DNA of 64,000 bases from an uncultured Muribaculaceae bacterium (GTDB lineage: Bacteria > Cyanobacteriota > Vampirovibrionia > Gastranaerophilales > Gastranaerophilaceae). The position numbers and the translations under genes are program-made. The notes under the pieces were generated by a model that was not told the DNA's origin, searched no databases, and saw nothing but the letters and a program-made list of their open reading frames with translations. Shown here one piece after another: positions 2,098 to 29,294 of the stretch. The stretch is taken from contig CAYVSD010000003.1 of NCBI GenBank assembly GCA_964453315.1, positions 8,689-72,688 on the forward strand. Reading direction: 5' to 3'. Each line of letters starts with the position of its first letter. Positions within the stretch are counted from its first letter, which is position 1.

Positions 2098-2500
2098 GGG
2101 GACGTTTTGGATTAGACAGGACGTTTTGGTGAATATATGCGGCGAGTCGGAGCGCTGTTCTCCGTTACAAACGAGCAAAACAAATTAAATGCTAACAATG
2201 TAATTAAAGCAGACTTTTCAAGAGCAGCAGCAATCGCTGCCTAAGTCGAGCTTCTTAGCTACTTGTAAAGCCCAGCTTGCCGGTTTTATGAGTCCATTAT
2301 GCAAGCGGCAGTGTGTCACAGGCTAAGTAAACACATCAAGCTAACTTGGCAGAGTTTAGTGTTTCTCTCAAATAAAACCTTTGATTAATTTAACGGGTTT
2401 AGACATTTTCCTGAATTAATCGAGAAAAAAATTGCCTACACTCGTAGAAGTATATATTTTCCCGTTTTGGACGTGGGTTCGACTCCCACCGTCTCCACCA
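2098..2500 (+). ncRNA. ssrA: tmRNA (transfer-messenger RNA)
   Basis: 5' GGGGACG pairs with 3' CGTCTCC followed by ACCA, including the G3:U pair. T-arm is GTGGG-TTCGACT-CCCAC. Resume codon GCT at 2191 opens the tag frame ANNVIKADFSRAAAIAA with TAA at 2242-2244. Confidence 0.92.
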
Positions 2501-5000: not shown

Positions 5001-5049
5001 GCTGCAATTATATCACATTTGCTTATACAATGAAAATTTTAACTAAAAC

Positions 5050-6666
5050 TTAATTATTTGAAACATTTATAAGTTGCTGCAAACTTAGTATTTCTGCTTG
5101 TGTCCCATTAAGAATGTGTTCTGTTAAATCAGGTGAAATGTATTTGAGGTTCAGGATATTTCGTATATATTTTGAATCTTTAAGGTTTTCTTCTTTTTGT
5201 AAATCTTCAATTGTTTTGCCATTGTGAATTTGCTTATGGTAATAATAGCTTTTTACAAGTGCATTTACCAAATAAGGATTTGGTTCAGGTGTATCGTTTT
5301 CTTTGGCATTAAGTATAAGAATATTTCCAGTCTTCGAGGGTTGAGAAATCCTTATCGATTTCTTAATTGTAATTGGTTCAGTATCTTTCCTTTGAGGAAT
5401 CAACATAATTTTATTGCCTCGATTTATAATTAATAATACCTCTCTTATATTCTTTGCATCATAAGTTATTTCAACATTTTTATCCGAAACAACAACTTTG
5501 TTTACTACAGATCTTATTAGTTTAGGGTTTTCGTAATCTTCGATAGTTTGGGCAACCTTTAGAAGTTCAATTTGTTTATTAACATCAAAGCCAGAAAGCA
5601 TTTTTTGCATCTGCTTTTTATTTTGTAAAAGTTCTTTGGTGGTTAAAATCACAAACTTTTCAATTTCTCCGGCAGGAATTTTAGAAACAGAACCTGCCGT
5701 TAGCTTACTGTATTTTTTAATAGCCTGACTTACATAATATCGGTAACGTCTTTTGTGGCTTGTGCTATGTGATGGCGTCATTTTGTTACCTTTGTCGTCA
5801 AATATCATACCTGTCAATAAAGAATTTGAGGAACATTTTGTTCCGCAAATTTTATCAACTTTGTTCTCATACAACAATTTTTGCACTCTTTCAAAAGTAA
5901 TTTCATCAATAATACCTTTATGTTCACCATCATAAACATTGTCTTTATGTACAATTTTACCGATATAAACTTTGTTAGAAAGCATATGGTACAACTGTCC
6001 TTTAAAGAAATATTTATCTGATTTGGTTTTAATATTTTCTTTCTCAAGCCAATCTTTTAGTTTTGGAACACTCTTTATTTCCAAATACTTATCAAAAATT
6101 AGTTTGACCTTTTGAGCATCTTTTTCTTCTATAACAAGTTTTTTATCTTCTTTCTTGTAACCAAGCGGAGTGCAACCACCCATCCACATCCCCTTTTTCT
6201 TTGATGCAGCAATTTTATCCCGAATTCTTTCTCCGGTAACTTCACGTTCAAATTGCGCGAAAGACAGAAGTATATTTAATGTTAACCGACCCATTGAAGT
6301 TGTGGTATTAAATTGCTGCGTTATGGATACAAAGGAAGTTTTATGTTTATCAAAAATCTCAACAATTTTTGAAAAATCCATAAGTGAGCGTGTTAAACGG
6401 TCAACTTTATAAACAACGACAATGTCTATTTTATCGCCTTCAATATCTAATAAAAGCTCTTGAAAAGCCGGACGATTCATTGTTCCGCCGGAATAACCAC
6501 CGTCATTGTATTCTTTTTCAATAAGCATCCAACCCTCATGCATTTGGGATTTTATGTAAGCTTCACAGGCTTCCCTTTGAGCATCAAGAGAGTTAAAATC
6601 CTGCTCCAATCCTTCTTCGGATGATTTTCTTGTATATATTGCACAACGAATTTTTTTCTTATCCAT
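5050..6666 (-). CDS. Large serine recombinase (resolvase/invertase catalytic domain plus recombinase extension)
   Basis: 538 aa. AIYTRKSS (catalytic Ser region), VVYKVDRLTRS, and E-helix FAQFEREVTGERIRDKI. The long C-terminal extension is typical of large serine integrases. Confidence 0.85.
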   Translation of the reverse strand: MDKKKIRCAIYTRKSSEEGLEQDFNSLDAQREACEAYIKSQMHEGWMLIEKEYNDGGYSGGTMNRPAFQELLLDIEGDKIDIVVVYKVDRLTRSLMDFSKIVEIFDKHKTSFVSITQQFNTTTSMGRLTLNILLSFAQFEREVTGERIRDKIAASKKKGMWMGGCTPLGYKKEDKKLVIEEKDAQKVKLIFDKYLEIKSVPKLKDWLEKENIKTKSDKYFFKGQLYHMLSNKVYIGKIVHKDNVYDGEHKGIIDEITFERVQKLLYENKVDKICGTKCSSNSLLTGMIFDDKGNKMTPSHSTSHKRRYRYYVSQAIKKYSKLTAGSVSKIPAGEIEKFVILTTKELLQNKKQMQKMLSGFDVNKQIELLKVAQTIEDYENPKLIRSVVNKVVVSDKNVEITYDAKNIREVLLIINRGNKIMLIPQRKDTEPITIKKSIRISQPSKTGNILILNAKENDTPEPNPYLVNALVKSYYYHKQIHNGKTIEDLQKEENLKDSKYIRNILNLKYISPDLTEHILNGTQAEILSLQQLINVSNN

Positions 6667-7111
6667 TGGCTACTCCAAAGAACTTTTTACCGTTCCAATG
6701 AGTACCGGTTATGACATTTGCAACCGCAGAAAGAGTTTTATATGTTTGATCTTTGTATTGAAAACCGTTTTCTACGGCAGTTACTTCATATTTTTCACCT
6801 TTATATTCGCGGATAAATTTTGTACCAAAGGTTACTTCAAAATTCCTGATCTTTTTAACATTGATTGACTTTGTTTTTTCGTAATCGCTAACAAGCAAAT
6901 CCAGTTTATGTTGCAGGTCATTGGGCAAACTTTTATACTGTTCTTGCCAAACAATCTCCTTAATTAGGTAAGATTTTGTGTAACCTTTAGGGGCAGAATA
7001 TCCAAAAACTTGCAGATATTTTTGTTCAAGTTCTTGTTTTGATAGAGCTTTATAATCAATAATTTTAACTTGCATACTCACATTAATCGCTCTTGTAGCA
7101 AGCTTTTTCAA
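6659..7111 (-). CDS. DUF2924-family protein (frequent partner of large serine recombinases)
   Basis: 150 aa. The C-terminus YKTLSAVANVITGTHWNGKKFFGV matches the DUF2924 signature (SLSaiA..ITG..WsG..FFG). It overlaps the recombinase start by 8 nt. Confidence 0.7.
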   Translation of the reverse strand: MKKLATRAINVSMQVKIIDYKALSKQELEQKYLQVFGYSAPKGYTKSYLIKEIVWQEQYKSLPNDLQHKLDLLVSDYEKTKSINVKKIRNFEVTFGTKFIREYKGEKYEVTAVENGFQYKDQTYKTLSAVANVITGTHWNGKKFFGVANG

Positions 7112-7140
7112 GTCATACCGACATATTTTGTATCAATATT

Positions 7141-8733
7141 TTATGGATTAACAATTAATTCATCATAAAATTCCTGCAGGTGATTTTTATATTTTTTCAA
7201 TTTCCTGATTACGCGAACAATAATTTGCCTAATACGTTCTTTTGAAACACCATACATTTGTCCAATTTCATCAAGTGTCCATTGAGTTCCATCTTCAAGC
7301 CCATAACGTAGTTTTATAATTTTGATTTCTCTCTCTGACAAGGCTTTTTCCAAAATAGCATTTATTCTTGTTTGTAATTCATCAACTAAAATTTTATTAT
7401 TTTCTTTTTGACGATCAATGCTATAATTATCAAACTTTGTATGATCCAAATTATAAGCATCCTCAAGTCCTAAGGTACATGTTGGGGATTGAAATAATTC
7501 TTCAATTTTTTCTTCTGAAATACTTAATGCATTTGCAATTTCTGCACAGGTAGGTTCTTTACTATATTCTTGAATATAATTGTCTTTGAAGATAAAAATT
7601 TTTCTAAATAATTCATTTATATGATGTGGATAATGAATCATTTTACCTTTATCAGAGATGGCTCTACTTATAGAATTTTTAATTAACCATGTTGCATATG
7701 TTGAAAATTTGTAACCTTTAGTATAATCAAATTTGTTAATTGCTTTTATTAGACCTATGTTACCTTCTTGTATTAAATCTGAGAATGATAGGCTTTTTCT
7801 ATAAATATATTTTTTAGCAATATTTATTACAAGTCTTAAATTGGCACAAATTAAAATATCTTTTGCTTGTTCTGATAATTCTGCATTATCTAAATCTTTA
7901 AAAAACATTGGTTCAAGATTTGTATCTAACATTGGGTATTTACATATTTTTTCCAAATACCAATATATTGAATTCTCAGTTAAATTACTTAATTGTTGAT
8001 TATATAAAGCAAGTAACTTTTCTAAGGAATATTTTCTTGCTGCTTCAATCAGTTCTTCTTCTACCTTGTCTATACCAAAATCTTCTTCATTTTGCAGATC
8101 GTATTCTTCTATATTAGAATAGGCAGTTTCTTGTTTTTGAGGAAGAGATTGCTCTTTTATCGTGGGGCTAAATATATTTTCGAGGCTAATTGTTTTAAGT
8201 TTTTTGATTTCGTTATCATCAATATTTTTACATTGAACCTTTATCATATGAACGGATTCTAAGACATCTTTATCCACATCTAATTTGTTTGGTCGTCTTT
8301 TAGTGTAAATTATATTTAAAAACGGGCCTGATACAATACTTATAATTGTTGGATAAAGAATTTGCTTATTAATTTCTGTAGCTATTTGTTTAAGTTCAGT
8401 ATCATTTAGCAAACCGTTTAATTTAATAGTGATAAATAATAAAGATTTTTGAAAATCTTCATCTGATGAAATGTTTAGAATTTTTTGAATATCCTGATTG
8501 GTTACTTGAAACAAAAATGCAGCATTCACCCAACGATTTATCATTGCTTTATTTTTATCAAGATTTGGAAAAGCACTTTCAAATGCTTCTATCGTATTTA
8601 GATTTGGAATACGTCTATTAGTAGGATAACCAAGAGATTCGAACAATAAAAATGAGTTTTCAACAAAATTATTGTTGAAATATAGAAAATTATTTAATAT
8701 ATTTTTTAATTTATCATTTGTAACTGTAAGCAT
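7141..8733 (-). CDS. Sigma-70 family factor (regions 2-4) with an extra N-terminal domain paralogous to the N-terminus of the adjacent methyltransferase
   Basis: 530 aa. Region 2: [41 protein letters not shown]. Region 4.2: [19 protein letters not shown]. The N-terminal ~190 aa align with aa 20-190 of the 1220-aa protein ([13 protein letters not shown] / [13 protein letters not shown]; AAFLFQV / AQFLFEL; [11 protein letters not shown] / [11 protein letters not shown]). Confidence 0.8.
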
Positions 8734-8741
8734 AATTTTGC

Positions 8742-11700
8742 CTATATAGTATAATTATTATATTCCTGTTCGGACATTGAGAAGTTTGGATCTATGACCA
8801 TAATCTCATTATAAGTAAGCTCATAGAGTTTATAAATTATTGTGTCTATATTATCTTCTAAATTTTTTATATTTTGCTGTTTTATATTATCTATGTTTGA
8901 ATTTATATCTTTTAATATCTCTAAAATCTTATCAACCATTTTAATAATATTTTCTTGATTTGTTACTTCTTTTGGTAAAGGGAATGACTCTAATTTGGCA
9001 ACACCTATATCAACTCCAGTTCCTCTTTTTTTGCCATTTTTATAAAACCAATTTAATGCAAATTTAGAATTTAAAATTGCTAATATTGTTTTAATCGAAT
9101 AATCTGAATTTACTCGCATAGTAATTATATTTGAAGACATCCCAAAATAACAATTTTGTGTATCATAGCCTACTTTGTTTACATCAAACATAGAGGGTAT
9201 AACTAATTTTTCTTGTTCAAAGAATTCTTGTTTCCGTGGCCAATGCAAGTGAAACCATTTATTTGAGCCTTTTATAGTTTCTCTACGATTATCCATTATA
9301 ACTTTATACTTATACAAATGATTTTTTATATTTGGATAATTATCAATATTCACACAATTTTCTTTTGTTAAATATAAAAGGTATTTCCCATCAGATTTAT
9401 TATTTACAGAATATTTACTAATAGCATTCTCTTCCAAAAATAATTTAACAAATTTTTTTTCATCACTATTTAAATTTATTTTATTTAGCTCATCTTTAGT
9501 TAATACAAATACCCCAGCATTTAAATTAAATCCATATTTCTCAGAATTTTTTTTATTTATTTTGTCTGGATTTTGAACAACACCTTGTACAACATTACAT
9601 TGGCTTGATAATTGTATAAAATGTTCATTAAAGTTTTGATTTTGCTCTAATATAATTTCATTATTAATATAGATACTTTTATTGCTCAGAGGAACTGTTA
9701 GTTTATTTTCATTATCATCCTCTTTATTTATATACATAACATCGTTCTCTAATTTATGATATTGAAATATCTCTAAATCTTTTGAAATATTTTTACGGTA
9801 TGTCGCAATCATGTGATAACCAGCGACATTATCAAAAACTTTTAATTTTCCAATGTCTACAAAATCTACAAATGATAAATTTTCTTTTACATCCATTATA
9901 AGTTTTTTTGCACCTGTGCTATTCAACCAATATCTTGATGTTATAAAGGATATTGTGCCATTATATTTGGACAATTCGATTGCTTTATGTAAGAAATAAT
10001 ACCAAAAATCCATCTTTCCTTGATGATATTTTTTCCCAAATACAGATATATTTACGGGTTCAAATACTTCTTTATGGTCTCTTTCTTTTAAATATGGTGG
10101 ATTGGCAATAATAATGTCAAAGCTATCAACATTAAACATCCATTTTGGATTAAACCATTCAGAAGAATAATCTTTATCATAAGGGCTCCATTGGGCAAGT
10201 TTTGCAGCTTGACCTAAATCAAGATTTAATATAACTGCTTCCTGTTTGATTTGTTCTCTTATTTTTTCATCTTGTGTTTTTAGATTTTCTTTTCTTTGGC
10301 TTGTATTTGCCCTAAAATACCCCTCTCTTATTTTTTCTAATTTCTTTTTGAGTTCTATAATTTTAGGTGCTTGTGCAAACAAATTATTTTCATTCAAATC
10401 TATCAAAGTATTAGCCGCAACGAATTTAGTTTCAAGGTTCGGAAGTGCCAAGATACCCATATTGTCTTTGTCCTTATCCACTTTTTCATCAACAATAAGA
10501 GAAATAAAAAATCTTAATCTTGAAATTTGTGTTGCCATTGGCTGAATATCAACCCCATATATGCATCGTTGAATTAAGTATAATTTTCTTGAATAGTCCA
10601 TCTCATTGTCATTGAACTGCTTTTCAATGATTTTAATTGCTTCTTCTCTTGCTTCTATATCATCAATTTGGCTTGCTTTGTCTAGTTGGGATTCTTTCCA
10701 CTTCTCATTGTGAGGATCTAATTTTGATAAGACATGAACTAATTTATGCAATAATCCCATAGGGAAAGCACCAGAGCCACATGCAGGATCTAAAATTTTA
10801 ACTTCATTTACTGCTTTTATCAGTTCATCAACTTCTGTTTCATTGAATGAGTGTTGCTCAGAATAAGACAAAAGTTCCTCTAATTTATCGTCAATATTTT
10901 CAATATTTAAACTTTCCACCTTAGTTTTTAAGTAGTTGATTAAAGATTGTTCACACATATAATCAACTATTTCACGAGGGGTATAATATGAACCTGTAGA
11001 TTTTCTCGCGGTTGTTTTTGTTTCAGGGTTGTGTGCAGCAAGTAAATTTTCAAAAACACGTCCCAAAAGTTCAGGATCTAATGCAATTTCTTCTTCCACA
11101 GGTGTTGTTTCATCAATAGTGAATTTATATGAGTTTAATATTGTAAATAAACCCTTAACCTTAGCATTTTTATAACTTCTATTTCCGTCAAAATGTTCAG
11201 ATAAATCAACAACTTTTTCATCTTTCATAAAGAAAATGTCATCAGGAATTTTTAGGAAGTTTTTGGAATCATTGTCGGTAAAGCAATCTATATATCTGCC
11301 ATTCCTTTTTTCATCCGTACATTCAAACAACCCACCATTCAAGAATGGTATATCCTTAAACAAATCAATTATATCTTGTGGATTATTCAGATATTTTCTA
11401 TAACGGAATAAATTATTTACATCATAGCCTGCATTTAAGTTATTATATCTATACTCTGGTCTAAATTCTCTTCTATCCATTGGTTTTGACAAACAACCAA
11501 AGAATAAATTTTGAAGTACAACTTTATAATACAAATCTCCTTGTTCTCGGTATTCAGGTTTTAACAGGTCTAAATAGGTCTGTTTATCAAAAACTTTTTC
11601 ACTAACTAAACCTTTTTCTTTGATAAACCAATCAAAGATAATTCTTGTAACCATTCTAATTCCGAACATTATATTATCTTTGTGGGTGTTGTCTTTCGAT

Positions 11701-12404
11701 AATTGGCAAGTATCTATCATCCAGAAAAACCAATTAGAAAGTTCTGTATAGAATTTTTTGTTTAATTCAGATACACTTAGTGCTTTCAACCAATTTAAAT
11801 GCAAATCAACAAAATTTTCTACTTTTAGATTTTTAAATGCAATATCTTCTAAAATATCAATATGTGCTCTGTGAGGATTACTAAAATTTATGTCCTTAAT
11901 CAAAACAACTTTTTCCAATACATCTTTATTTTCATCTTTTTTGTTTAAACGTCTGTCAATAATAGAAAAAGTTAGCTTATCAGCATATTTAAACAATATA
12001 AAAGCAGGAATTGTACGAACTTTATTAACTTCTCTTGTAATATCTGAAAGTTGTTTTTTAGAATATGTATCACCTTTTAATTCAATAGCATAAAACCAAT
12101 ATGTCTCAATATCTTTATCATCGATTCTGCCACCTGTAATTTCTGTTTCCTCAGAATTTAAATCATTGGGCTGTAATTCAAACAAAAATTGTGCATCTTT
12201 CCAATGGGAGTATAATGCTTTATCTTCATTTAAGTTATTTAACAAGAAGCGACCTTTAAAATCTTCAATAGAACTAACTGCAATTTGTCTTTTGGTTGTA
12301 TATCCAAGTGTAGAAAATAGCTTTAAAGCTGATTCTAAAATGGTATTATGTCTAAATTTTAATATGTCTGATTTAATCTGTTGTTTTAGTTCTTTATTCT
12401 CCAT
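8742..12404 (-). CDS. Type IIG/IIL-like (MmeI/Eco57I-family architecture) fusion: PD-(D/E)XK-like N-domain + N6-adenine DNA methyltransferase + C-terminal specificity-like region
   Basis: 1220 aa. D98-x9-E108-x-K110 ([13 protein letters not shown]); motif [12 protein letters not shown]; Eco57I-family helix [19 protein letters not shown]; motif IV IIANPPY. About 430 aa follow NPPY. Confidence 0.8.
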
Positions 12405-15400
12405 TAATTTTCTCCATCAATTATCAACCAAGTAATAAGCTCAAAATCATCATCCGATTTAACTTGCTCATCAATAGTTGGAATTACTCCTCCCCTACCT
12501 TGAAATGCAGATACCATATTGTTTTGATAAAATTTTGTAATTCCGCTTACGGCAGATTTTAATAATTTACTATATAAATTCATACCCTCCTGTGTTTGAA
12601 TTTGCTCATTGAATTTATTACATAGGTCTACAAACGGTTCTTTTTTACCTAAACATAGAGCTTTATAAATATCTAAAATTTCTCTTGATCTTTCATATGT
12701 ATATAAGACTTCACCATCTTCTTTTACATACACTAAATAGTAAGGTTGCAATTTATTTAATTTTGAGTTTTCTGTCGATGAATTTTTCTGTTTTAGACAG
12801 AAAATAACTCCGCTTTGTGCTATTACTTGCCCATTATCGTCTTTATTAGGGGTCAAAGCACAAATTCCAATTGGCATATTTTTCAAATCATCTTTTCTTG
12901 TTTCCATGAAATTAAACAAATCGCTTTGGAAGTCTTCAAGAGAAAAATCTGACATATTTATATCTTGAATAGAGTTATCAGTATCTTCTAAAGGCTTTTC
13001 TTCAATAATTTTCTTCAATTGTTTTTCACGATATGTTAAATCTCGTTTGATAATTTCCTCAGGGTCTTGATCTTCCAACAAAGGATTGTCATCGGCAGTA
13101 GCCGATGCATCTGCCAAAATCATCCTGGCCTCAACTCTATTTCTTAATTGAATGTAGGATTCTAAATCCTCGGTAGGCCAAAAGCAAATCATTTGTATAT
13201 AATCATTTAAACTGCCAATCCTATCAATACGACCAAATCTTTGAATTAGTCGTACAGGATTCCAATGTATATCATAATTAACAACTGTATCACAATCTTG
13301 CAAGTTTTGACCTTCTGAAATACAGTCTGTACCTATTAAAATATCAATTTGATCATTCCCTGTTCTTTTTTCTCCAAGTTTTGAATATGGAGAAAAGTTT
13401 TCCAAAATATCATCAAAATTATTTAAATTTTTGTATGTAGATTCTGTATCTTTACCTGATACAAGTGCAATATTTATATCTAATGTGTTTTTTACATAAT
13501 CTTTTAAGCAATCGTACAAATATTTTGCAGTATCACTGTATGTAGTAAATATTAATAATTTTTTGTTGTTTTGTTTTGATTTATCAGTAATAATATCTTT
13601 CAATTCAGACAATTTTTTATCACGTTCTTTGGTAACAGTTCTTGCCATGTTGTAAATTTTTTCAACCTGAATCCTATCAATTAACAATTCCTTTTTCCAT
13701 TTCTCTACATCTAAATCTGCTAAACTATATTCCATTTTTTTACCAACAACAAACTCATTATCTGCTATTTCTTGATCGTCTATAAAATCATCAGAATAGG
13801 CATCATCAGTTGAAATTGTAGAGTTAGTTTTGTTTTGAATATATTTATCAATTAGGACAATTCTACTATCAATCTTATCTAAGGTATTTTTCATTGAGAT
13901 TGTGAAAGATGCAATAGAACTTTCAAGACGTTTTAGAAAACCCATTTTCATCATACCAATCAAATAATTTTCACGTTTTTCCTGCGTCATAGTTGTATCT
14001 TTTTTTGATTGATATTTCTCATGATTTTTTACAACATATAACGAAGGTCTAAATAAGTATAATTGGTATTTAAGAATTTCGTCATTTATCTCTTTATAAC
14101 TTGGGAATTTATTTTCAACATCTATTGATGGAGTCTTTGTTACAGGATTCTTTCGTTTAGGGAAATTTAAAGAACTCTCGTCTTTTAAGTTAATATAACC
14201 TGATTTAATCTGTTTTCTTGATCTTGCAATTGTTAATTCTTCCAATAGCTTGAAAAAATTAACATTTAAATTATTTAATAAGTCGTTTTTATTTCTGTTA
14301 TCATCTTTCGCCCAATCAAGATACTTCTTATTTGCAACTTTTATAGCTCCTTCAATACTAGGAATCTGTATTGATTCGGCAAAAGCCTTATCATCTCCCA
14401 ATGAAATAAAATTTATTTGGTTCTTTAAATCATTTAAGGAAGTATTAACAGGTGTTGCTGAAAGCATCAAAACCATTGGATGTCTTTCGCCGTTCTTAAT
14501 TATATCAAGTAATTTATCATAACGACTAATTCTTAAGATATTACCTTCTTTGTCAGTTTTACTACCAGTTGCATTTCTAAAATTATGAGATTCATCAATA
14601 ACAATTAAATCAAAATCATTAAATTTTATTTCTTTATCAATATCCTTAGCAGTCAACATTGATTGAGATAAAAACTTAATTCTTAAATTATCGTCCTGAA
14701 AAATATTTTTAGGATGAAATTCCTCATAACGTTTCCAGTTATTTTCAAGTCTTTTTGGTGCTAAAACTAAGCATCGAGTCTTACCTTTACATATTGCATA
14801 TTGAATAACACCTAAAGCTGTAAAAGTTTTACCTAAACCAACACTATCTGCTAAAATGCAGCCATTATATTTTTGTAATCTCCGCCATATAGAGTTGACG
14901 GCGTCTTGTTGGAATGGGTATAACATATTCCAAATTTTTGTTTGTGTAAATTTTTTATTTAGTTTTACGTCTTCAACGTCATTTGTATCTAATTTTTCTT
15001 CAAATAAATGGTATAACGTCTTATAATACACTTGTTCTGGCGAATTTTCTTTATATATTGCTTCTATATATGATAAAATTTCTTTCTTAGCATCTTCAGT
15101 ATTTTCTGTCCATAAGTCATTAAACCAATCTTTTAAATCTTTTTTGCCATTATCGCTATCAATAATGGTATTTAATTCGTAATTAGAACAATCATTGATC
15201 CCTAATCCACAAGTAGTAAAATTTGAACTTCCAACGATTGCGTCAACAACACGATCATTATGTTCCTGTTCAATATGATACATTTTACCATGTATTAAAG
15301 TTTTTTTATTATCTTTTTTGGGAGCTGTTCTAATTTCTATATTACTATTTTTTAGCCATTCATAACAGTCTTTAGCAATTTTATTTTGCTTTAATACATT

Positions 15401-15697
15401 ATTTAACGTAATATCTTCATCTTGTATTTTAAAAACTCTAAATCGTTTATTTTTAATGCCTAAATTTTCAACTGACGAAGGTTCGCCTAAAATAAATTTT
15501 ACTTCTGAAACTTTATTTTTTAATTCATTACGTAATGCATAAAAGGCATATATAGTAAAATAAGCAGAAACGATTTTTAATTTGGATTTATCATTATACT
15601 TATCAAAATTATTATTTAAAACTTCTTGCAAAAAACTATAAACGGTACCGTATTTTGCGTTGTCTTTAATACTTGATCTATTTTTTACTTCCTGCAT
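12404..15697 (-). CDS. PLD (single HKD) nuclease domain fused to an SNF2-family helicase
   Basis: 1097 aa. HKD: LIHGKMYHIE...AIVGSSNFT. SNF2: ADSVGLGKTF, VIDESHNFRN, LSATPVNT, DIHWNPVRLIQRFGRIDRIGS. Its stop overlaps the methyltransferase start (TAATG at 12402-12406). Confidence 0.85.
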   Translation of the reverse strand: MQEVKNRSSIKDNAKYGTVYSFLQEVLNNNFDKYNDKSKLKIVSAYFTIYAFYALRNELKNKVSEVKFILGEPSSVENLGIKNKRFRVFKIQDEDITLNNVLKQNKIAKDCYEWLKNSNIEIRTAPKKDNKKTLIHGKMYHIEQEHNDRVVDAIVGSSNFTTCGLGINDCSNYELNTIIDSDNGKKDLKDWFNDLWTENTEDAKKEILSYIEAIYKENSPEQVYYKTLYHLFEEKLDTNDVEDVKLNKKFTQTKIWNMLYPFQQDAVNSIWRRLQKYNGCILADSVGLGKTFTALGVIQYAICKGKTRCLVLAPKRLENNWKRYEEFHPKNIFQDDNLRIKFLSQSMLTAKDIDKEIKFNDFDLIVIDESHNFRNATGSKTDKEGNILRISRYDKLLDIIKNGERHPMVLMLSATPVNTSLNDLKNQINFISLGDDKAFAESIQIPSIEGAIKVANKKYLDWAKDDNRNKNDLLNNLNVNFFKLLEELTIARSRKQIKSGYINLKDESSLNFPKRKNPVTKTPSIDVENKFPSYKEINDEILKYQLYLFRPSLYVVKNHEKYQSKKDTTMTQEKRENYLIGMMKMGFLKRLESSIASFTISMKNTLDKIDSRIVLIDKYIQNKTNSTISTDDAYSDDFIDDQEIADNEFVVGKKMEYSLADLDVEKWKKELLIDRIQVEKIYNMARTVTKERDKKLSELKDIITDKSKQNNKKLLIFTTYSDTAKYLYDCLKDYVKNTLDINIALVSGKDTESTYKNLNNFDDILENFSPYSKLGEKRTGNDQIDILIGTDCISEGQNLQDCDTVVNYDIHWNPVRLIQRFGRIDRIGSLNDYIQMICFWPTEDLESYIQLRNRVEARMILADASATADDNPLLEDQDPEEIIKRDLTYREKQLKKIIEEKPLEDTDNSIQDINMSDFSLEDFQSDLFNFMETRKDDLKNMPIGICALTPNKDDNGQVIAQSGVIFCLKQKNSSTENSKLNKLQPYYLVYVKEDGEVLYTYERSREILDIYKALCLGKKEPFVDLCNKFNEQIQTQEGMNLYSKLLKSAVSGITKFYQNNMVSAFQGRGGVIPTIDEQVKSDDDFELITWLIIDGEN

Positions 15698-15793
15698 ATT
15701 ATTATCCTATTTATGCTATAAATCTTTATTTTAATTCTGAAAATATAATAACAAATTTTACTTTATATAACAATACAATAAAAGATTGAAAAA

Positions 15794-16633
15794 CTATGTA
15801 AAAACAATATTCTGAGCTTGATTAAAAACCTGTTTAAACATTTCATTTTTATCTTCATTTTCAGATATAGCAAAAATTATATTTTCGAAGAATTTTTCAT
15901 ATTCTTCAGTGTATAAGACATCAAAATAGTATTGTATTACATCTTGTGTAAAATTCTTAATATAGTCCAAAACTCTTAAAATCAACGTTTTGTATCCATA
16001 TAAAATGGCAATATTAAACAAATTTCTTATTTTATTTTTCACTAGTATTTCAATCTCAGTACTTTTTGTTTCGGACACAAAATTATTTTTATAAGGTCCA
16101 GGAATTGAAATTATGCTTACTAAATAAGGATTTTTAAGAAGTTCGCAAGAAGAATTGCGAAAAACACAAACATTTTTACTTAATAACATGTAATTAGAAC
16201 AACAAGCCAATTCTCTATTATTTCTGTTATATTCATACATGTCGTGAGCTTTTGCCGAACATAATGATTTATATAAAGTGCTGTTTCGGCAAAATGATTC
16301 TTCTTGATTTCTTATGCCAGACCAAAAATTCCCTCCAGGGTTTGTTGCACTAGCAAAATTTAAAACCAAAGGGTTATCATAATTTTTTGCAGATTCCAAA
16401 ACATCTGAATTCATTACAACATAAGCAGGTTTATTATTTAAATCTTTTTTATTTTTCAATTTTGCGGAAATAACATTTGAAACAAATTCTAATGTTTTTG
16501 GGGTAAAAAGAGTAACTTGGCTGTAATTCTCTTTTGGTAATTGAATAATCTCCCCGTTTAATTCGTAATACCCAGCATCAGTAATCTTAATTGTTTCAAT
16601 ACCGATACTAATAAGTTCCTTTCTGCGTAACAT
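15794..16633 (-). CDS. TIGR02452-type (microbial PARG-like) macrodomain protein
   Basis: 279 aa. LVLNFASATNPGGNFWSGIRNQEESFCRNSTLY matches the NFAsa.nPGGG...G..aQEE.lCR.S.LY signature, with a GGG->GGN variation. Confidence 0.65.
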   Translation of the reverse strand: MLRRKELISIGIETIKITDAGYYELNGEIIQLPKENYSQVTLFTPKTLEFVSNVISAKLKNKKDLNNKPAYVVMNSDVLESAKNYDNPLVLNFASATNPGGNFWSGIRNQEESFCRNSTLYKSLCSAKAHDMYEYNRNNRELACCSNYMLLSKNVCVFRNSSCELLKNPYLVSIISIPGPYKNNFVSETKSTEIEILVKNKIRNLFNIAILYGYKTLILRVLDYIKNFTQDVIQYYFDVLYTEEYEKFFENIIFAISENEDKNEMFKQVFNQAQNIVFT

Positions 16634-16659
16634 ATAAACTCCTTAAACTTGAAACAAAT

Positions 16660-16959
16660 CTAATAGTTATAATATCCCTGTCTGTTGCCATTAAAATCGT
16701 ATACATTTACTCCCGTTCCATTTGATTTAGGAACTGCGTATCCTCTTGGATTTCCACTATTGTCATAAATTAAATTTGCATTTGGATTGTTTGGGCTGTT
16801 GCTCCAATTGAATGGACTATTCTTCCAGTTATTGGAACTGTTTTCCCAATTTGCCTCACTATTGTTCCAATTGTTCGGGCTGTTTTCCCATGTTGTGAAA
16901 GCTTTTGTCATTTGCTGTACTCCTATTAAAATTATTAAAGCAATTAAAATCTTTTTCAT
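16660..16959 (-). CDS. Small secreted protein with Asn/Trp heptad-like repeats
   Basis: 99 aa. Signal peptide MKKILIALIILIGVQQMTKA, then WENSPNNWNNSEANWENSSNNWKNSPFNWSNSPNN (NWxNSxx repeated about 5 times). Confidence 0.55.
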   Translation of the reverse strand: MKKILIALIILIGVQQMTKAFTTWENSPNNWNNSEANWENSSNNWKNSPFNWSNSPNNPNANLIYDNSGNPRGYAVPKSNGTGVNVYDFNGNRQGYYNY

Positions 16960-16972
16960 ATAAATCTTTTCT

Positions 16973-17941
16973 TTATAAAGCCAATAGTTCTTTCATAATA
17001 CGTGCGTGTTTTTTTGCTTTTTGAGTGTTGCCGAGTTTTTTATAACAGATTTCAAGCTTTTCGTGCGCTTTGTAGTTATAATCCTGTATCTCTAAAATAT
17101 TTTCAAAACAGTCTATAGCCTTTTTATAGTTAAGTTCGTTCATATATGCCATTCCGAGTTTGAAATATAATTTTTGAACATAAGAATGGTATGAATTTGA
17201 AGAATAAAGTATTCCCTTTTGTTCATTATAGTACTCATCTATATATTTATATGCCAAGTCATATTCACCATTATCAATAGCTTCATTTGCCAACTTCGCT
17301 TTTTGCATGCGGAATTTTGGCATCTTTATAATATCATTACGAGAATCTTCAACTCTTTTTATCCACGCTTGAACATTATTATTCTTTTTTATTTCTTTCT
17401 TTGCCAATAAAGTAGTAACAGGACTTGCGATTTTACAACCTAAAATATATATTCTTTTGTTATTTGCAAAGTAAGGCTCTGTATAACAATTTTCCTTTAT
17501 CTGCGAATATAAAATGTTATAGTCGTAATCAGTGTTATCGAAAATTTTTAAATAATTTATAGCCTCATCATAGTGACCTATAGTTTCTAATACAAAAACC
17601 CACGACAATTCTAAAAACTTAAAAGGAGTATTATTGTTTACAATATTCCTGTTTGTTGCAATATGTCCTGTTATATTGTTTCTTGTATAAATTTTATTTT
17701 TGTCCGAATTGTTTTGAATGTTATATAAAGTATTGTAATCAGGAAAATTATATACAAATATTACTTTATCTGAGCAAGTGTTAAAATATTTATGAGCATA
17801 TTGAATATTTCCGACACTGCAATTTTTAACTTTAATCGGTACCGTCATATACCAACTCAATAACAGAACACCGAAAACAGTTCCGAGTATAACAACCCGC
17901 TTTTTAAATAAATCTTTAATTCTTTGCAAAAAATCTTTCAT
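16973..17941 (-). CDS. Membrane-anchored TPR-repeat protein
   Basis: The ORF track extends to 18004. The ATG at 17941 has an AAGGGA Shine-Dalgarno and leaves the repeated operator-like motif (17989-18003) upstream. One TM helix (VVILGTVFGVLLLSWY). C-terminal TPR-like repeats (AIDCFENILEIQDYNYKAHEKLEICYKKLGN). Confidence 0.55.
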   Translation of the reverse strand: MKDFLQRIKDLFKKRVVILGTVFGVLLLSWYMTVPIKVKNCSVGNIQYAHKYFNTCSDKVIFVYNFPDYNTLYNIQNNSDKNKIYTRNNITGHIATNRNIVNNNTPFKFLELSWVFVLETIGHYDEAINYLKIFDNTDYDYNILYSQIKENCYTEPYFANNKRIYILGCKIASPVTTLLAKKEIKKNNNVQAWIKRVEDSRNDIIKMPKFRMQKAKLANEAIDNGEYDLAYKYIDEYYNEQKGILYSSNSYHSYVQKLYFKLGMAYMNELNYKKAIDCFENILEIQDYNYKAHEKLEICYKKLGNTQKAKKHARIMKELLAL

Positions 17942-17988
17942 ACAATATCCCTTTCTGTTCATTACATGAAAATTATAAAATATAACTG

Positions 17989-18003
17989 TGCCAAAATTGG
18001 ACA
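17989..18003 (-). promoter_or_regulatory. Operator/promoter motif copy 3 (TGCCAAaatTGGACA)
   Basis: One of three 15-mers fitting TGYCAA-N3-TGGACA. On the minus strand TGTCCA-N3-TTGGCA is followed 11 nt later by TATAAT. Confidence 0.4.
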
Positions 18004-18006
18004 CCC

Positions 18007-18981
18007 TTAAATTTGTTTAATTGCTTTATCTAAAAGTTCTTTATAAGTATCTTTCAATTCTTGCGGCTCAAGGATTTTTACATTTTCTCCCCAGCGGAAA
18101 AGGTGCCAGCAGATTTCATATCTCCCGCCTGCTTCAAAAGTAACGGTTGTTGTGTCGTCAGGATTAACCTTTAATTTCTGAGTTGGGTGCAAATTATAGT
18201 CCTTAATTGCGTCTTTGACATCCTTTGAAAACAACAGCTTTATCTTCATTGGTTTTTCCTGATAAACTCCAAACGAATTTTTTAAATAGTCCTTCAAGTT
18301 GAATTTTTCATCTTTGTCAAAATATTCATCCAAAACTTTTGGTTCTTTGATTTTGTGTAAAAGATAGTATCTAAGTCCTTGCTTTTTATCGTTGTAACCA
18401 AGCAAATATGTCTTTTCACCATAAATAATCCCATATGGTTGAATCTTTAATTTTGCGACTTCTCCTTTATTGTTTTCGTAGGTAAATTCAAGATATTTAT
18501 AGGATTTCAAAGCATCTGAAATAACATTCAGTGTATTAAAATTCATCTTGTATCTTGGGTGTTGACGAACTGCATAACCTTCAACTTCCAAAAGTGCTTC
18601 GACATCTGTTTCAACTGATTTCGATTCGTTAATCATATTAATTTTAGCCATTATTTCCGATAATAAATCACAACGATTCGTGTAATTTAGGTTTTTCATC
18701 ATAGATTTGCAGTTTTCAAGTTCTGCAATTTCTTCCGCGGTAAAAGAAATCATTTTATTTAACGGAGTTTTATTGAGTCGCCATTTTTTTATTCTAGAAA
18801 GAGGGTTTTCAACTTCTTCCATACTCGGGAAAAGTCTTTCAACAGCATCCTTCATACGGATTGCAGTTCGTCGTGAAACCTCAAATTCATCCATAATATC
18901 CTGAATTGAGAATCCCTGATAGCTATTTTGCATATCTATTGCAAGTCTTAAAATATCTTCAACACGGTCATATCTTGGCAT
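18007..18981 (-). CDS. WYL-domain transcriptional regulator (HTH-WYL-WCX architecture)
   Basis: 324 aa. N-terminal wHTH (FSIQDIMDEFEVSRRTAIRMKDAVERLF). WYL-like core (TYLLGYNDKKQGLRYYLLHKI). The C-terminal domain ends WGENVKILEP. Confidence 0.75.
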   Translation of the reverse strand: MPRYDRVEDILRLAIDMQNSYQGFSIQDIMDEFEVSRRTAIRMKDAVERLFPSMEEVENPLSRIKKWRLNKTPLNKMISFTAEEIAELENCKSMMKNLNYTNRCDLLSEIMAKINMINESKSVETDVEALLEVEGYAVRQHPRYKMNFNTLNVISDALKSYKYLEFTYENNKGEVAKLKIQPYGIIYGEKTYLLGYNDKKQGLRYYLLHKIKEPKVLDEYFDKDEKFNLKDYLKNSFGVYQEKPMKIKLLFSKDVKDAIKDYNLHPTQKLKVNPDDTTTVTFEAGGRYEICWHLFRWGENVKILEPQELKDTYKELLDKAIKQI

Positions 18982-19023
18982 AGTTAAACTCCTTTTTTAT
19001 ATTATGATTATAAGCTGTAACTA

Positions 19024-19038
19024 TGTCAATTTTGGACA
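19024..19038 (-). promoter_or_regulatory. Operator/promoter motif copy 2 (TGTCAAtttTGGACA)
   Basis: Lies 43 nt upstream of the WYL gene start. On the minus strand TGTCCAaaaTTGACA is followed 11 nt later by TATAAT. Confidence 0.45.
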
Positions 19039-19040
19039 CA

Positions 19041-22000
19041 TTATATCAAATCAAGCCTGCAAAGTTGTTTATATGCACAGAATTTACAAGCCCCGTCGCG
19101 AGTTTCACGTATTGGTTCAAATTTTAATTCTTTAATATTTTTAAAAGTTTCTTTTATTTTGTTTTCAATATATTCCATATCAGAAGCGTCAAGTTCTTTA
19201 TATACACTCTTATTAGGGTATTCTACAAAAATTATACCTGTATGCGCAACTTTTTTGCCTGAAAACTTTTCAAAAGCATACTTATAAAAACAAAGTTGAT
19301 TGTAATATCCTTCTTTCTCCTGACCTAATGCAATTTTGTTTTCTGTCGCATAATACCCTGTTTTATAGTCAAACAGAGAATATGTGCCGTCTTTATTCTT
19401 TTCAATACGGTCAATTTTACCCGTAATTAAATCCCCGTCAACTTCAACCCCTCGAAAACTAAACTCAATATCTTCAACCATATGAATAGGTGTTTGTTTA
19501 AATATAGGATAATAGCCTTCAATTACAGCTAAACCCGCTTTTTCAAACTTCTCTTTTGAAGCTTCACTTGTAAATCTTTGGGTATCTAATAACTTGTTAA
19601 ATTCTCGTGTAATTTCTTCGGTTGCTGGATAATCCCCTTTCTCTTTTGCATATTTAACGGCATTTTCCAAGATTTTGTGAATTACCGTACCAAAATTTGC
19701 ATTATCCCAATCTGCATCTTCAACATCTATTCCTAAAATCTTTGTGTAGAAAAATTTTCGAGGACAACCGATGTAATCATTCATTCTGCTTAACGAAAGT
19801 TCAAGCTTTTCAACTCTTTCCTGAATTTCAGATTTAAATGCTACTTGATTATCATAAACATCTCTTGACAAACTGCGGAAAAATTCAGCAGTAAAATCAT
19901 CTTCATTATATTCATAAGTTCGGCTGTCAAAATCATAATTTGATAGATTTAACAGATATTTTGTAAGTTGATTCGCTCTATCTCCCTCTTTGTCAGCAAA
20001 AGAAATTGTCAAAGCATGTTTTGCCCTTGTTATTCCGACAAATAGCAGTTTTAACAATTCTGTATTTTTTTTACTCTGTGCTTCGTCTTTATCTAAAACT
20101 TCCTCTGTTATAAGTTTGTATTCCCCCGGCATTGTAAAGTCTTCCCAGTTGCGAGAAATTAAATTCGGCAAGTATACATACTCAAATTCTCTGCCCTTTG
20201 ACCCATGGTAAGTCGTTAACTGAACGGCATTTTGAATAATTGTGTTTTTATCCGTTGTAATATCTATCTCATTATTCCAACAATCATCAAGGTATTTTAC
20301 AAAATCACCCAGCGAACGGGTAAAGTCAAGATTGCCAAATTCAGTTGCTTCCTCAATGATTTTTTTAATCCCCATAAGGTTTTCCATACGATTTTTCTCT
20401 TCTTTATAAAAAGCTTCTAAAATTCCCGTACGGTTTACTATTTCAACAACGGTTTCTCTTAGTTGATTTGTGGCAGAGAATTCTTGCAAATATTTAAAGT
20501 TTGCTAAAAATTCTTCTATTTTTTGAGGATTTTTCCAGCCGTCTAAATTACGCATAAGCGAAATAAAATCATTCGATTCATCTTTTTTATAGAGTTGTTT
20601 TTCGTGCAAAATTCTATTGTAATCTTCTAAATCCAATTTAAACGGCTCGGACAGTAAAAGTCCGAAAAGTTTGTCGCTTGATAGCAAGTAATTATCTAGT
20701 GCTTTCATATAAAAATAGAGTAAAATAGAAGAACGAATAGAAAAAATACTTTTACCTTCATCTATCTGAAACGGAATATTTTTTCCCTTCAACATTTCAG
20801 CATAACTTTGCAATTCAGGACGTTTTTTAGAAATAATTGCAATCTGAGATAAATCTTTTTCGCCATTTTCATTTTTAGGACAAGAGTCAGAATTTACAAG
20901 GTTTTGGATTTCTTCAACAATATGGTTCATTTCCTGTAAACTGTCCCCGAAATGCAAATTCCTGACCTTTTTATCTAACGGTGTAATTTTTGGATTTTTT
21001 GCTGTTAATTTTTTAGAAATATTTTTATCCTGAAATTTCTTATTATTTTCAAGGCGGTTTTCATCCTGAGATATAACTTCATAACTGAAATCCAAAATTG
21101 ACTGAGTAGAACGGTTATTTTCTTTCAGACAAATAACTTCCGTTTGCGGATATTTAATTAAAAAGTTTTCAATACTATCAAGTTTTGCGCCCTGAAAACC
21201 ATAAATAATCTGATCATCATCACCCACAACAAAAATATTTTTTTCTTCGTTTGCGTCAACTAAATTAAAGATAATTGAATTTTGAGAATCGTTTGTGTCT
21301 TGATATTCGTCAACTAAAAAATACCTGTATTTGTTTGAAACCTCACGTAAAAATGCTTTATCATTTTCAAACTCATCAAGAACAAAGTTTATCATATCCG
21401 AAAAGTCAATAAGATTATGCTCAATCATTTTTTTAGAATACAATTCGTACAAATTCCAAAGTTCTTTTGCTTTTTCAATATTGTTTTTAATTTTTTCTAT
21501 TTCTGTGTAACGGGTTTTGTTGCGTGTTTCGCCACGCTGTTCACGTTCATAAATCTCACTTTCAACTTCTTTTAAGCGTGGCATTAAAGTTGGATTAGTT
21601 TCAATACAAGCTAAATATTTATCTTTAGTTATGCGTTTAGACTTTAATTTTTCAATATAATCAATAAAATTTTTTGTAAAATAATATCTGTCCCCTCGAG
21701 TTGGTACAAAATATTGGAGTTTAATTTCATCAATACATTCACGCATTAAAGAAATTTTTTCCGTTCCGTTGATTAACCTTATACCAACGGCTAAATCAAA
21801 TTGTGAAGGGTAAAGTTTAATCAAGTCATTACAGAATGAATGATAAGTATAAATATCCACAGAAGTTGCAATTACGCCCATTTTTTTGATTAATCTTTGG
21901 CGCATTTCATTTGCAGCAGCATCGGAGAATGTCAAACAAAGAATTGACGAAGGTTTAACCCCTTGCTCTAACATCTTTTCTATTCGGTGTATAACAGTAA

Positions 22001-25389: not shown

Positions 25390-25831
25390 GGATATCAAAG
25401 AAGAAAAAGTAGGCTATAAAAACCCGCCAAAATCAAGCCAGTTCAAAAAGGGACAATCAGGAAACCCTGCCGGCAGAAAGAAAAGAATCATTCCAAAATC
25501 ATTTTATGAGGCATTTATTATTTGTGCCAATGAAATAAAAACCATAAGAAACGAAAACGGAGTTCCTCAAAGATTCAGTATGTTTGAGATTTTTTGTAAA
25601 AAGATTATACAGGATGCTTGTCAAAAAGACGGTTATTCTCGTAAATTCTTAATGGATACGTTCTTGAAAATTGATTTAGAAACAGCATACAAAGCTCTTG
25701 TTGAAAAATCTAAACCCAAGACTGAAGAAACTATTGATCATGTAAAACTTCGTAATTACTTAGAGGAAATATATTTGGAAAAATTAAGAGAAGAACAAGC
25801 AGAAAGTGAGAAAAACGGGGATTTTTCATAA
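25379..25831 (+). CDS. DUF5681-like protein (phage/plasmid associated)
   Basis: 150 aa. KNPPKSSQFKKGQSGNPAGRKK matches the F.kGqSGNP.GRpkG signature. It overlaps the preceding gene by 11 nt. Confidence 0.5.
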   Translation: MQNKDIKEEKVGYKNPPKSSQFKKGQSGNPAGRKKRIIPKSFYEAFIICANEIKTIRNENGVPQRFSMFEIFCKKIIQDACQKDGYSRKFLMDTFLKIDLETAYKALVEKSKPKTEETIDHVKLRNYLEEIYLEKLREEQAESEKNGDFS

Positions 25832-25841
25832 AAAATTCCCT

Positions 25842-25878
25842 GCTAATTCCCTGTTCTTTGAAAAAACAGGGAATTAGC
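25842..25878 (+). terminator. Long perfect hairpin after the DUF5681 gene
   Basis: GCTAATTCCCTGTT (25842-25855) and AACAGGGAATTAGC (25865-25878) form a 14-bp perfect stem. A weak T tail follows. Confidence 0.45.
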
Positions 25879-29285: not shown

Positions 29286-29294
29286 GGAGATACT

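Follow-up and report, generated by a model that had tools for sequence, protein, structure and literature searches.

The question that this locus raises is whether a helicase and a DNA methylase encoded by two overlapping genes constitute a restriction system of their own, or whether they are part of a larger defence system such as DISARM (defence island system associated with restriction-modification) or BREX (bacteriophage exclusion). Both genes lie in a stretch of 64,000 nucleotides of contig CAYVSD010000003.1 (assembly GCA_964453315.1, placed in the Gastranaerophilales by GTDB), which is called the window in the following. The helicase joins a phospholipase D (PLD) domain with a single HKD motif to an SNF2-type motor, and its partner is a large N6-adenine methyltransferase. 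With moderate confidence we regard the operon that they form together with a third gene, a sigma-70 fusion, as a self-contained, ATP-dependent, restriction-modification-like defence module, which belongs to a widespread family and would be carried on an integrative island by the gene for transfer-messenger RNA (tmRNA). Comparison of homologous loci supports the view that the pair is conserved as a self-contained restriction-like module and is not a fragment of DISARM or BREX, because the flanking genes differ across phyla while the adjacency of helicase and methylase stays. The new and interesting part appears to be an N-terminal domain, possibly an adaptor, that the methylase shares with the sigma-70 fusion, together with that fusion itself.

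The three genes are tightly linked in one operon on the minus strand, in the order helicase, methylase and N-domain/sigma-70 fusion (Table 1). The stop codon TAA of the helicase and the ATG of the methylase have one base in common, in ...GAAAATTAATGGAG..., and a GGAG is found 8 nt upstream of this ATG; the sigma fusion starts 8 nt past the methylase stop codon. An earlier interpretation of the same DNA, made from the letters and their open reading frames (ORFs) and here called the sequence-only reading, had recognised both genes and their TAATG overlap, which are indeed present on the minus strand. Its two-gene core stands as well, but its module ended at position 8742, so that the third operon gene at 7141-8733 was missed. 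Promoter-like hexamers upstream of the helicase lie at 15802-15775 and 15773-15745; a scan of 4900-16800 returned 78 promoter-like sites against 73 expected, which is not above chance, and a terminator scan of the same interval found no minus-strand terminator.

All helicase motifs quoted in the sequence-only reading are present, with the single HKD ahead of a full SNF2 motor: HGKMYHIE at residue 136, GSSNFT at 156, GLGKT (Walker A) at 287, DESH at 368, SAT at 413 and motif VI, QRFGRIDRIG, at 819. Pfam assigns residues 37-196 to PLDc_2, 259-468 to SNF2-rel_dom/ResIII and 695-828 to Helicase_C, and gives a weak match to the RE_NgoFVII PLD domain. The PADLOC model C3a139 'HKD+Snf2' (PDLC01075) matches over the full length (E 7.1e-114, 380 bits), with helicase residues 33-1092 aligned to positions 20-946 of 948, and this match, together with the position of the HKD domain ahead of the SNF2 core, places the protein in that family. 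At least 8000 homologues of the helicase exist in many phyla, with about 45% identity over the full length, a count that spans both subfamilies described below. All ATPase motifs, as well as H136, K138 and G156-S157-x-N159-F160-T161, are invariant in 40 homologues of 44-82% identity. Among solved sequences ISWI, RapA and other SNF2 ATPases come nearest to the SNF2 core, and among PDB sequences no solved PLD-helicase gave a significant sequence match. The stretch behind the motor, previously given as about 300 unassigned residues, is unassigned but shorter (269 aa); its conserved columns extend to residue 1093 in the homologue alignment, its AlphaFold2 (AF2) model is mediocre with a mean pLDDT (predicted local distance difference test) of 65, and a search with this model found no fold match in PDB (best E 0.63). 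We predict that the helicase is both the ATP-dependent translocase and the nuclease subunit, with the HKD-PLD domain as the best candidate nuclease of the module, a role that had already been considered for it in the sequence-only reading.

The strongest indirect evidence for PLD as the nuclease comes from a sister family in which the HKD has been lost. Among 80 helicase-anchored metagenomic loci, of which 74 had 700 bp or more downstream and were counted, an N-domain methylase stands next to the helicase in 39, at a median gap of 4 nt and with the HKD found in 37 of them. In another 33 the HKD is lost; here a stand-alone DUF4391 protein is the next gene in 31 and is followed by a type III-like Mod in 29, while in 2 of the 33 only a Mod gene was detected. 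Neither partner class was seen in 2 of the 74. In a survey of 80 viral contigs the HKD was intact in all 5 loci that have the fused methylase and was found in none of the 68 loci of the stand-alone DUF4391/type III-like class. When both surveys are pooled, an N-domain methylase lies directly downstream in 44 of 147 loci, with the HKD found in 42 of the 44, as compared to 0 of 101 sister loci.

In the sister system a helicase-related protein is followed by the stand-alone DUF4391, the type III-like Mod and a DEAD/DEAH Res-like gene, and annotated plasmids list the same genes as helicase-related protein, DUF4391, site-specific DNA-methyltransferase and DEAD/DEAH helicase. The sister helicase is homologous over its full length (35-40% identity) with the HKD replaced in the alignment of the PLD region, and the DUF4391 protein (200-290 aa) is directly downstream and as tightly coupled as in the pair. 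The system is abundant and common on plasmids and viral contigs (our loci L010, L011, L012, L062-L098 and most of L099-L178), and we found neither a published name nor an experiment for it in the literature. Across the family, an intact HKD thus goes with the fused N-domain methylase and a lost HKD with stand-alone DUF4391, Mod and Res. As the HKD is kept where no other nuclease gene exists and is lost where a Res-like gene is present, the PLD domain would be the nuclease of the two-gene type. In one sister locus, L012 on the Bacillus cereus plasmid NZ_AP022916.1 (record 28632-42365), DrmA and a DUF1998 (DrmB-like) protein are encoded immediately upstream of a cluster with HKD-less helicase, DUF4391, Mod and Res, and the whole looks like a DISARM-like hybrid.

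The adjacency of helicase and methylase extends far beyond the closest relatives. A contig search with a single helicase sequence gave 3 close loci, and the closest helicase loci are from Gastranaerophilales metagenome-assembled genomes (MAGs). A methylase of matching architecture (1148-1300 aa) directly follows the helicase in Gemmatimonadota, in a 6.2-Mb genome, in Crocosphaera and in Gastranaerophilales-like MAGs; in these loci a 4-bp overlap of stop and start codon is frequent, and the flanking genes are unrelated between them. An overlap or a gap of at most 10 nt was likewise observed in 21 of 38 metagenomic homologous pairs. Conservation of the two families as neighbours in other genomes, which the sequence-only reading had proposed as a check, was therefore found: the pair stays adjacent and the flanking genes vary. 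In a Dissulfurispiraceae genome (L005 12067-12330 and L006 4367-4630) an intact helicase is accompanied by a methylase N-domain remnant of 87 aa, with a Gp49/HTH toxin-antitoxin-like pair sitting between both, and this locus appears to be a decayed system.

The methylase carries the motif DPACGSGAF at residue 539, IYGVDIQP at 615, LRFF at 630 and NPPY at 768, all as had been read before. Because DPACGSGAF precedes motif IV (NPPY), the enzyme is gamma-class by motif order. Pfam detects Eco57I at 614-857 (98 bits) and TaqI_C at 1029-1143, PADLOC matches its REase_MTase_IIG model (E 3e-69), and the nearest solved relatives, over residues 752-1185, are CamA and M.BseCI. The former label 'MmeI-like' is weak, with MmeI_Mtase at 26.6 bits just under its cut-off of 27; Pfam MmeI_N has no match in the methylase. 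For the C-terminal region, a target-recognition function over about 430 aa had been proposed; a TaqI_C-like specificity domain is indeed found there, but the region is shorter (about 360 aa). Two close homologues (L001, L002) are 68-71% identical to the window methylase across its residues 7-849 and align past residue 849 only across the last 140 residues, at 35-38% identity. Such a hypervariable specificity region among close homologues would be expected if specificities change. Methylase and target-recognition domain are combined in a single polypeptide (Eco57I + TaqI_C), as in type IIG/IIL enzymes.

A second feature of type IIG/IIL enzymes, an N-terminal PD-(D/E)XK nuclease with conserved catalytic residues, was not found in the methylase. 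The sequence-only reading had pointed to D98-x9-E108-x-K110. These letters are present, but as a nuclease motif they do not hold: about 0.73 matches are expected per protein of such composition, at least one occurs in 51% of shuffles, and in an alignment of 43 homologous N-domains 3 retain D98, 27 retain E108 and 16 retain K110, while 7 retain the alternative triad 95/108/K110. Other positions are invariant instead (Y35, P133, R151, R152, D161-V-L, H178, H181 and an ITRE motif), and the N-domain of the sigma fusion has K and N at the positions of the motif. By profile comparison, the N-domain is a homologue of DUF4391 without conserved catalytic residues. As a single sequence it scores 26 bits with Pfam DUF4391 (PF14335), under the gathering score of 29.9; aligned by hhalign with stand-alone DUF4391 it reaches a probability of 91.8% (E 7e-7, 174 columns), and a custom DUF4391 hidden Markov model (HMM) matches most of the 38 metagenomic N-domain methylases. 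In addition, N-domain methylase and stand-alone DUF4391 occupy the identical genomic position after the helicase. With this assignment, the proposed nuclease/methyltransferase fusion and the idea of two nucleases are not supported; the earlier observations are confirmed in part and their interpretation is supported in part.

AF2 models residues 1-210 of the N-domain at pLDDT >90. A Foldseek search of this model against PDB gave nothing under E 0.04, with the PD-(D/E)XK resolvases RecU and Hjc in the weak tail of matches (E 0.14-1), and an HMM of the N-domain alignment had zero matches to PDB sequences at E <=10. The fold may be a degenerate restriction-endonuclease-like one. The domain is common to the methylase, the sigma-70 fusions, a fusion with tetratricopeptide repeats (TPR) and the stand-alone DUF4391 proteins, and in every locus examined it is encoded within two genes downstream of the helicase, in most of them immediately after it. 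We propose from this gene context that it is a helicase-binding adaptor, since it is found on varied partners yet always close downstream of the helicase.

The third gene of the operon encodes such an N-domain in front of a sigma factor. Pfam detects Sigma70_r2 (68.6 bits), r4 (62 bits) and r3 (27.7 bits) in the C-terminal half, and with 119 bits TIGR02937 exceeds its cut-off of 42.9, so that with regions 2, 3 and 4 all present the protein belongs to the sigma-70 family. NCBIfam MzaA-like and RpoD C-terminal models match as well, both under their cut-offs. Outside the fusions, the sigma domain is closest (48-49% identity) to sigma factors that have 326-340 aa and come from Gastranaerophilales and Melainabacteria, some of them annotated as primary sigma factors; a search with the sigma domain gave these host-type sigma factors and no MzaA. 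This relationship agrees with a probable origin of the window in the Gastranaerophilales, to which the closest helicase loci also belong. Residues 24-187 of the fusion are 32% identical to residues 23-193 of the methylase (BLASTP E 7e-15), and on this similarity the two proteins have paralogous N-domains.

The N-region of the sigma fusion was searched against 1.84 billion representative proteins, which gave 249 matches at E <=0.001. Among the 147 matches listed, which were classified, are 18 clusters (50% identity) of N-domain/sigma-70 fusions of 482-986 aa, some with TPR inserts or C-terminal extensions, and one N-domain/TPR fusion of 686 aa without a sigma domain (P0337); the remaining ones are methylases of like architecture or fragments. 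In the sigma fusions P0246 and P0250 the TPR repeats lie between N-domain and sigma domain. The TPR-bearing fusions would likewise fit a modular adaptor. The clusters of sigma fusions are very small (1-12 members), no sigma fusion occurs in 160 helicase-anchored loci, and we found no mention of the fusion in the literature.

The 7 sigma-fusion contexts examined all have the fusion no more than two genes downstream of a PLD-SNF2 helicase, and 4 of them have it immediately after the helicase. In the window the order is helicase, methylase, sigma fusion. The context L013/L014 has an additional 239-aa gene between methylase and sigma fusion, on a contig from JGI the helicase is followed by a split methylase, a PC4 gene and the sigma fusion, and in L018 the sigma fusion stands between helicase and methylase. 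The three remaining contexts have no methylase: in L003 the helicase is followed by two sigma fusions, in L015 and L016 by one. L003 and L016 encode helicases with intact HKD and ATPase motifs, whereas neither was found in the L015 helicase ORF, a fragment of 622 aa. The helicase/methylase/sigma-fusion locus of L013 (11005-15352) adjoins a Cas9-Cas1-Cas2 locus, a neighbourhood which fits the earlier cataloguing of the helicase family and probably reflects shared defence islands.

That cataloguing dates from 2018, when Shah et al. listed the C3a139 'HKD+Snf2' cluster as a neighbour of type III CRISPR cassettes (PMC6546367). The pair itself has been described, likewise in 2018 and in silico only, on the Lactococcus lactis plasmid FM03P, where a PLD-SNF2 protein (orf33) precedes a REBASE type IIG methylase (orf34); its authors infer that PLD supplies cleavage, that the methylase is without a nuclease and that the pair resembles class 1 DISARM (PMC6098607). 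As described, this two-gene architecture matches that of the window pair, except that no sigma fusion is reported. In view of both papers the designation of the module as new in the sequence-only reading was overstated. The lactococcal defensome papers PMC11381338 and PMC12418389 contain nothing on the pair.

With respect to known defence systems, a PADLOC scan took in the 20 larger ORFs of the window, with the 6432-aa ORF and the small ORFs left out. No match was obtained among these 20 for DrmA, DrmB, PglZ, BrxC, BrxL, DUF499/HmaC or MzaB-E, which agrees, as far as these ORFs are concerned, with the earlier statement that the DISARM and BREX partners are missing from the window; DrmB (DUF1998) had no match in 80 metagenomic loci either, in which DrmA was not searched. 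Class 1 DISARM was rejected for want of a DrmA/DrmB core among the ORFs scanned and of family-level scores, the NCBIfam model DISARM_DrmD giving the helicase 147.7 bits against a cut-off of 610 and PADLOC DrmMI matching the methylase at residues 462-630 only (E 1e-18). The window pair does share three domain types with class 1 DISARM (SNF2, large N6A methylase and PLD), but it is without a match to DrmA (a YprA-type helicase) or DrmB, its PLD is fused to SNF2, and the pair is conserved alone. BREX was rejected likewise, as besides the lack of PglZ, BrxC and BrxL matches among these ORFs the PglX model BREX_1_MTaseX gives the methylase 57.9 bits against a cut-off of 500. The NCBIfam model phospholipD_antiphage reached 151 bits against a cut-off of 1100.

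MzaA (NCBIfam NF041931), a component of the anti-phage system MZA, is the best NCBIfam match of the sigma domain. It too resembles sigma-70, has a long extension at its N-terminus and is encoded in a defence operon with a motor like those of superfamily 2 (SF2), but the score of 242 bits is far under the cut-off of 800, only the sigma part aligns, and no other Mza component was found among the ORFs scanned, so that MZA was not retained. Hma and BREX-related systems combine a DUF499 ATPase (HmaC) with an SNF2 helicase that carries a C-terminal PD-(D/E)XK nuclease (PMC11232893, PMC12839542); here neither DUF499 nor HmaC is matched, the nuclease candidate is an N-terminal PLD, and the PADLOC HmaA match is partial only (E 1e-26). 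ARMADA was rejected in the absence of the required partner genes.

Architecturally, the module resembles a type III enzyme assembled from other components, the resemblance being one of analogy only. In type III restriction-modification systems (EcoP15I, Mod2Res1) a specificity-bearing methylase and a nuclease-fused SF2 ATPase also form two subunits, the genes are adjacent and often overlap, and one complex is expected to methylate and to restrict. In contrast, the window motor is SNF2-type instead of Res-type, the nuclease is an N-terminal HKD-PLD instead of a C-terminal PD-(D/E)XK, the methylase is a gamma-class Eco57I/TaqI-like one with a DUF4391-like N-domain where type III Mod is beta-class, and the helicase gene comes first. 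Type III membership was not retained, as the methylase matches Eco57I/TaqI_C and no Mod-type model, and the motor is of SNF2-type with an N-terminal PLD. The sister family shares with the window a full-length homologous helicase and a DUF4391-family partner directly downstream; it differs in that the HKD is lost, DUF4391 is separate, and methylase and nuclease functions reside on separate Mod and Res genes. A single-HKD PLD nuclease coupled to an ATP-driven SF2 motor is also known from CglI/NgoAVII and SauUSI. In SauUSI the PLD is N-terminal and fused to the motor as in the window helicase, but this enzyme is type IV, modification-dependent and without a methylase, whereas in CglI/NgoAVII R and H are distinct subunits, the motor is a DEAD-Z1 one and the methylase is separate as well.

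From these comparisons a mechanism can be proposed. The methylase would read a short asymmetric site via its specificity domain and methylate the host DNA, while its N-domain would dock it onto the helicase, as Mod is docked onto Res in type III enzymes. Unmethylated foreign sites would switch on SNF2-driven translocation, and two complexes would then cut the DNA with one active site that their single-HKD PLD domains form jointly. Nucleases with a single HKD, among them Nuc, BfiI, the R subunit of NgoAVII/CglI and SauUSI, pair two HKD domains per active site, and as single-HKD domains must pair, cleavage would need two converging complexes. The sigma-70 fusion may bind the helicase via its like N-domain and may either couple the motor-nuclease to RNA polymerase or give a transcriptional output.

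A broader version of this proposal appears possible but rather doubtful: the DUF4391-like N-domain would be a modular adaptor that plugs methylase, host-like sigma-70 or TPR modules into one and the same PLD-SNF2 motor-nuclease, the sigma version would couple the motor to RNA polymerase, and the methylase-less loci L003, L015 and L016 would then represent an undescribed, methylation-independent type of defence. In the sigma version the fusion could be a housekeeping-sigma decoy that senses phage anti-sigma factors or hijacking of the polymerase and releases the nuclease, it could serve as a tether and direct the nuclease to promoters of incoming DNA, or it could be the transcriptional output of the system.

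Several points weigh against the operon as a restriction-modification-like module. We infer methylation, cleavage, complex formation and protection against phages alike from sequence, and the contact between N-domain and helicase is suggested by gene adjacency and domain swapping only. Some PLD-family domains are non-nuclease phosphodiesterases. Neither for the helicase C-terminal domain nor for the N-domain was a structural homologue that would indicate a function found in PDB, and in the literature we found no experiment on any member of the PLD-SNF2/methylase family. In addition, the loci with helicase and sigma fusion that have no methylase misfit a simple scheme in which methylation separates self from non-self.

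The other explanations have to be weighed against the same evidence. That the SNF2 protein is a RapA-like remodeller recruited by the sigma fusion, with the methylase as an epigenetic regulator of island genes, and that the whole is thus a transcription- or chromatin-linked system, is suggested by the recurrence of a sigma-70 fusion with a methylase-type N-domain beside the helicase, as in this operon, by RapA among the nearest solved sequences and by the 48-49% identity of the sigma domain to primary-like sigma factors of Gastranaerophilales and Melainabacteria. We consider it unlikely, however, as the similarity to RapA is confined to generic SNF2 motifs, and an invariant HKD together with a hypervariable specificity domain are hallmarks of restriction; moreover, the rarity of sigma fusions, with 18 small clusters and no occurrence among the 160 helicase-anchored loci, means that such a system cannot explain the whole family. 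Decidedly improbable is an addiction or establishment module of the island, which would kill cells that lose the island or would act as an anti-restriction methylase-helicase and would not be primarily directed against phages. A large serine recombinase and a DUF2924 gene directly adjoin the operon, the tmRNA gene is near, and homologues are common on plasmids and viral contigs; many homologues are nevertheless chromosomal with no mobility genes nearby, and as restriction-modification systems on mobile elements typically do both, defence stays compatible with such a role.

Very improbable, too, is a classical type IIG/IIL enzyme of the kind of MmeI or BpuSI, whose active PD-(D/E)XK nuclease would be the methylase N-domain, with the helicase as an accessory or with both nucleases cooperating; this is the variant put forward in the sequence-only reading. 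The chance-level frequency and poor conservation of the motif described above, the K and N in the sigma paralogue, the position of the invariant residues and the lack of any significant PDB sequence or fold match to a nuclease speak against it, even though D95/D98, E108 and K110 are on predicted beta-strands in the window methylase, RecU and Hjc are among the fold matches at the weakest level, and PADLOC type IIG models match the methylase. The loss of the HKD, which tracks a separate Res-like gene, points to PLD as the nuclease instead. Extremely improbable, finally, is a fragment of class 1 DISARM or BREX whose obligatory partners lie beyond the window. The partial matches to the DrmD, DrmMI and PglX models could be taken in its favour, as could the Bacillus cereus plasmid, on which a distant HKD-less homologue of the helicase (36% identity) stands beside DrmA and a DUF1998 protein, but all NCBIfam scores are far under their cut-offs, no partner was detected among the ORFs scanned in the window, DrmB matches 0 of the 80 metagenomic loci (DrmA not having been searched there), and homologous pairs are flanked by unrelated genes.

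If the proposed restriction mechanism is true, the module would represent a common restriction-modification class, with at least 8000 sequence homologues of the helicase in many phyla, counted over both subfamilies. Current tools report a lone 'type IIG' methylase and a 'helicase-related protein', and thereby overlook both the nuclease and the ATP dependence. Which domain cuts can be judged from a clean natural experiment, the inverse relation of intact HKD and separate Res. The sigma-70 fusions would be the second sigma factor in a defence operon, after MzaA; a docking domain common to methylase and sigma fusion would make a structural logic visible and would render a role of sigma factors in immunity directly testable.

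Table 1. Features of the operon and of the tmRNA gene with its partial copy (positions in the window)
Feature	Coordinates	Strand	Evidence or remark
PLD(HKD)-SNF2 helicase, 1097 aa	12404..15697	-	ORF, Pfam, PADLOC
PLD domain, single HKD motif (H136, K138 ... G156-S-S-N-F-T161)	15110..15589	-	Pfam PLDc_2, residues 37-196
SNF2-type ATPase core	13214..14923	-	Pfam and motifs
Conserved helicase C-terminal domain, residues 829-1097, 269 aa	12407..13213	-	homologue alignment
Helicase/methylase TAATG stop/start overlap	12402..12406	-	sequence read directly
N-domain/gamma-class N6-adenine methyltransferase with target-recognition domain, 1220 aa	8742..12404	-	ORF, Pfam, PADLOC
Methylase N-domain, residues 1-215; proposed helicase-docking adaptor	11760..12404	-	DUF4391 homologue (hhalign)
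Methylase C-terminal region, residues 861-1220 (~360 aa), with TaqI_C-like specificity domain; predicted target-recognition domain	8745..9824	-	Pfam TaqI_C
N-domain/sigma-70 fusion, 530 aa, third operon gene	7141..8733	-	sequence, Pfam
AT-rich intergenic region, 96 nt, upstream of helicase; possible operon promoter (weak evidence)	15698..15793	-	sequence
tmRNA gene	2098-2500	+	adjoins gene block with operon and large serine recombinase
Degenerate copy of tmRNA 3' end	52441-52481		~50 kb from tmRNA gene

The operon lies in a co-directional minus-strand block which ends beside the tmRNA gene. In descending coordinates, this block contains a UvrD/PD-(D/E)XK helicase, a WYL-WCX regulator, a TPR protein, a PARG-like protein and the operon, followed by DUF2924, the large serine recombinase and a Sll1717-family ATPase; judged by these genes, the neighbourhood is defence-rich. 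The partial copy of the tmRNA 3' end reads TCCCGTTT...CTCCCACCGTCTC, with exact blocks of 13 nt and 8 nt whose spacing differs by 4 nt. An integrated island of about 50 kb, from about 2.5 to 52.5 kb, can be proposed on this basis; its extent is tentative because the 13-mer match alone is near chance.

Other genes of the putative island deserve mention. The cluster upstream of the operon (15794-22094, minus strand) comprises the UvrD helicase, which is fused to a PD-(D/E)XK/Cas4-like nuclease and has GajB-like matches, the WYL-WCX regulator, the TPR protein, the microbial PARG/TIGR02452 protein and a 99-aa protein that is rich in asparagine and has a hydrophobic segment at its N-terminus; this cluster may constitute a second defence module. 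The Sll1717-family P-loop ATPase at 2673-5000 (minus strand; 775 aa, 299 bits) has a weak N-terminal region like TIR/nucleoside 2-deoxyribosyltransferase and is, at the edge of the island, a candidate for a stand-alone defence gene. One giant ORF (6432 aa) occupies 30888-50186 on the minus strand. On the plus strand, 23941-30564 encodes a methyltransferase whose N-terminus is ParB-like by eye, then a protein with a weak DDE-transposase match (PADLOC TnsB) and a small protein with weak matches to ATPase models, which suggests a transposable element or a prophage inserted in the island.

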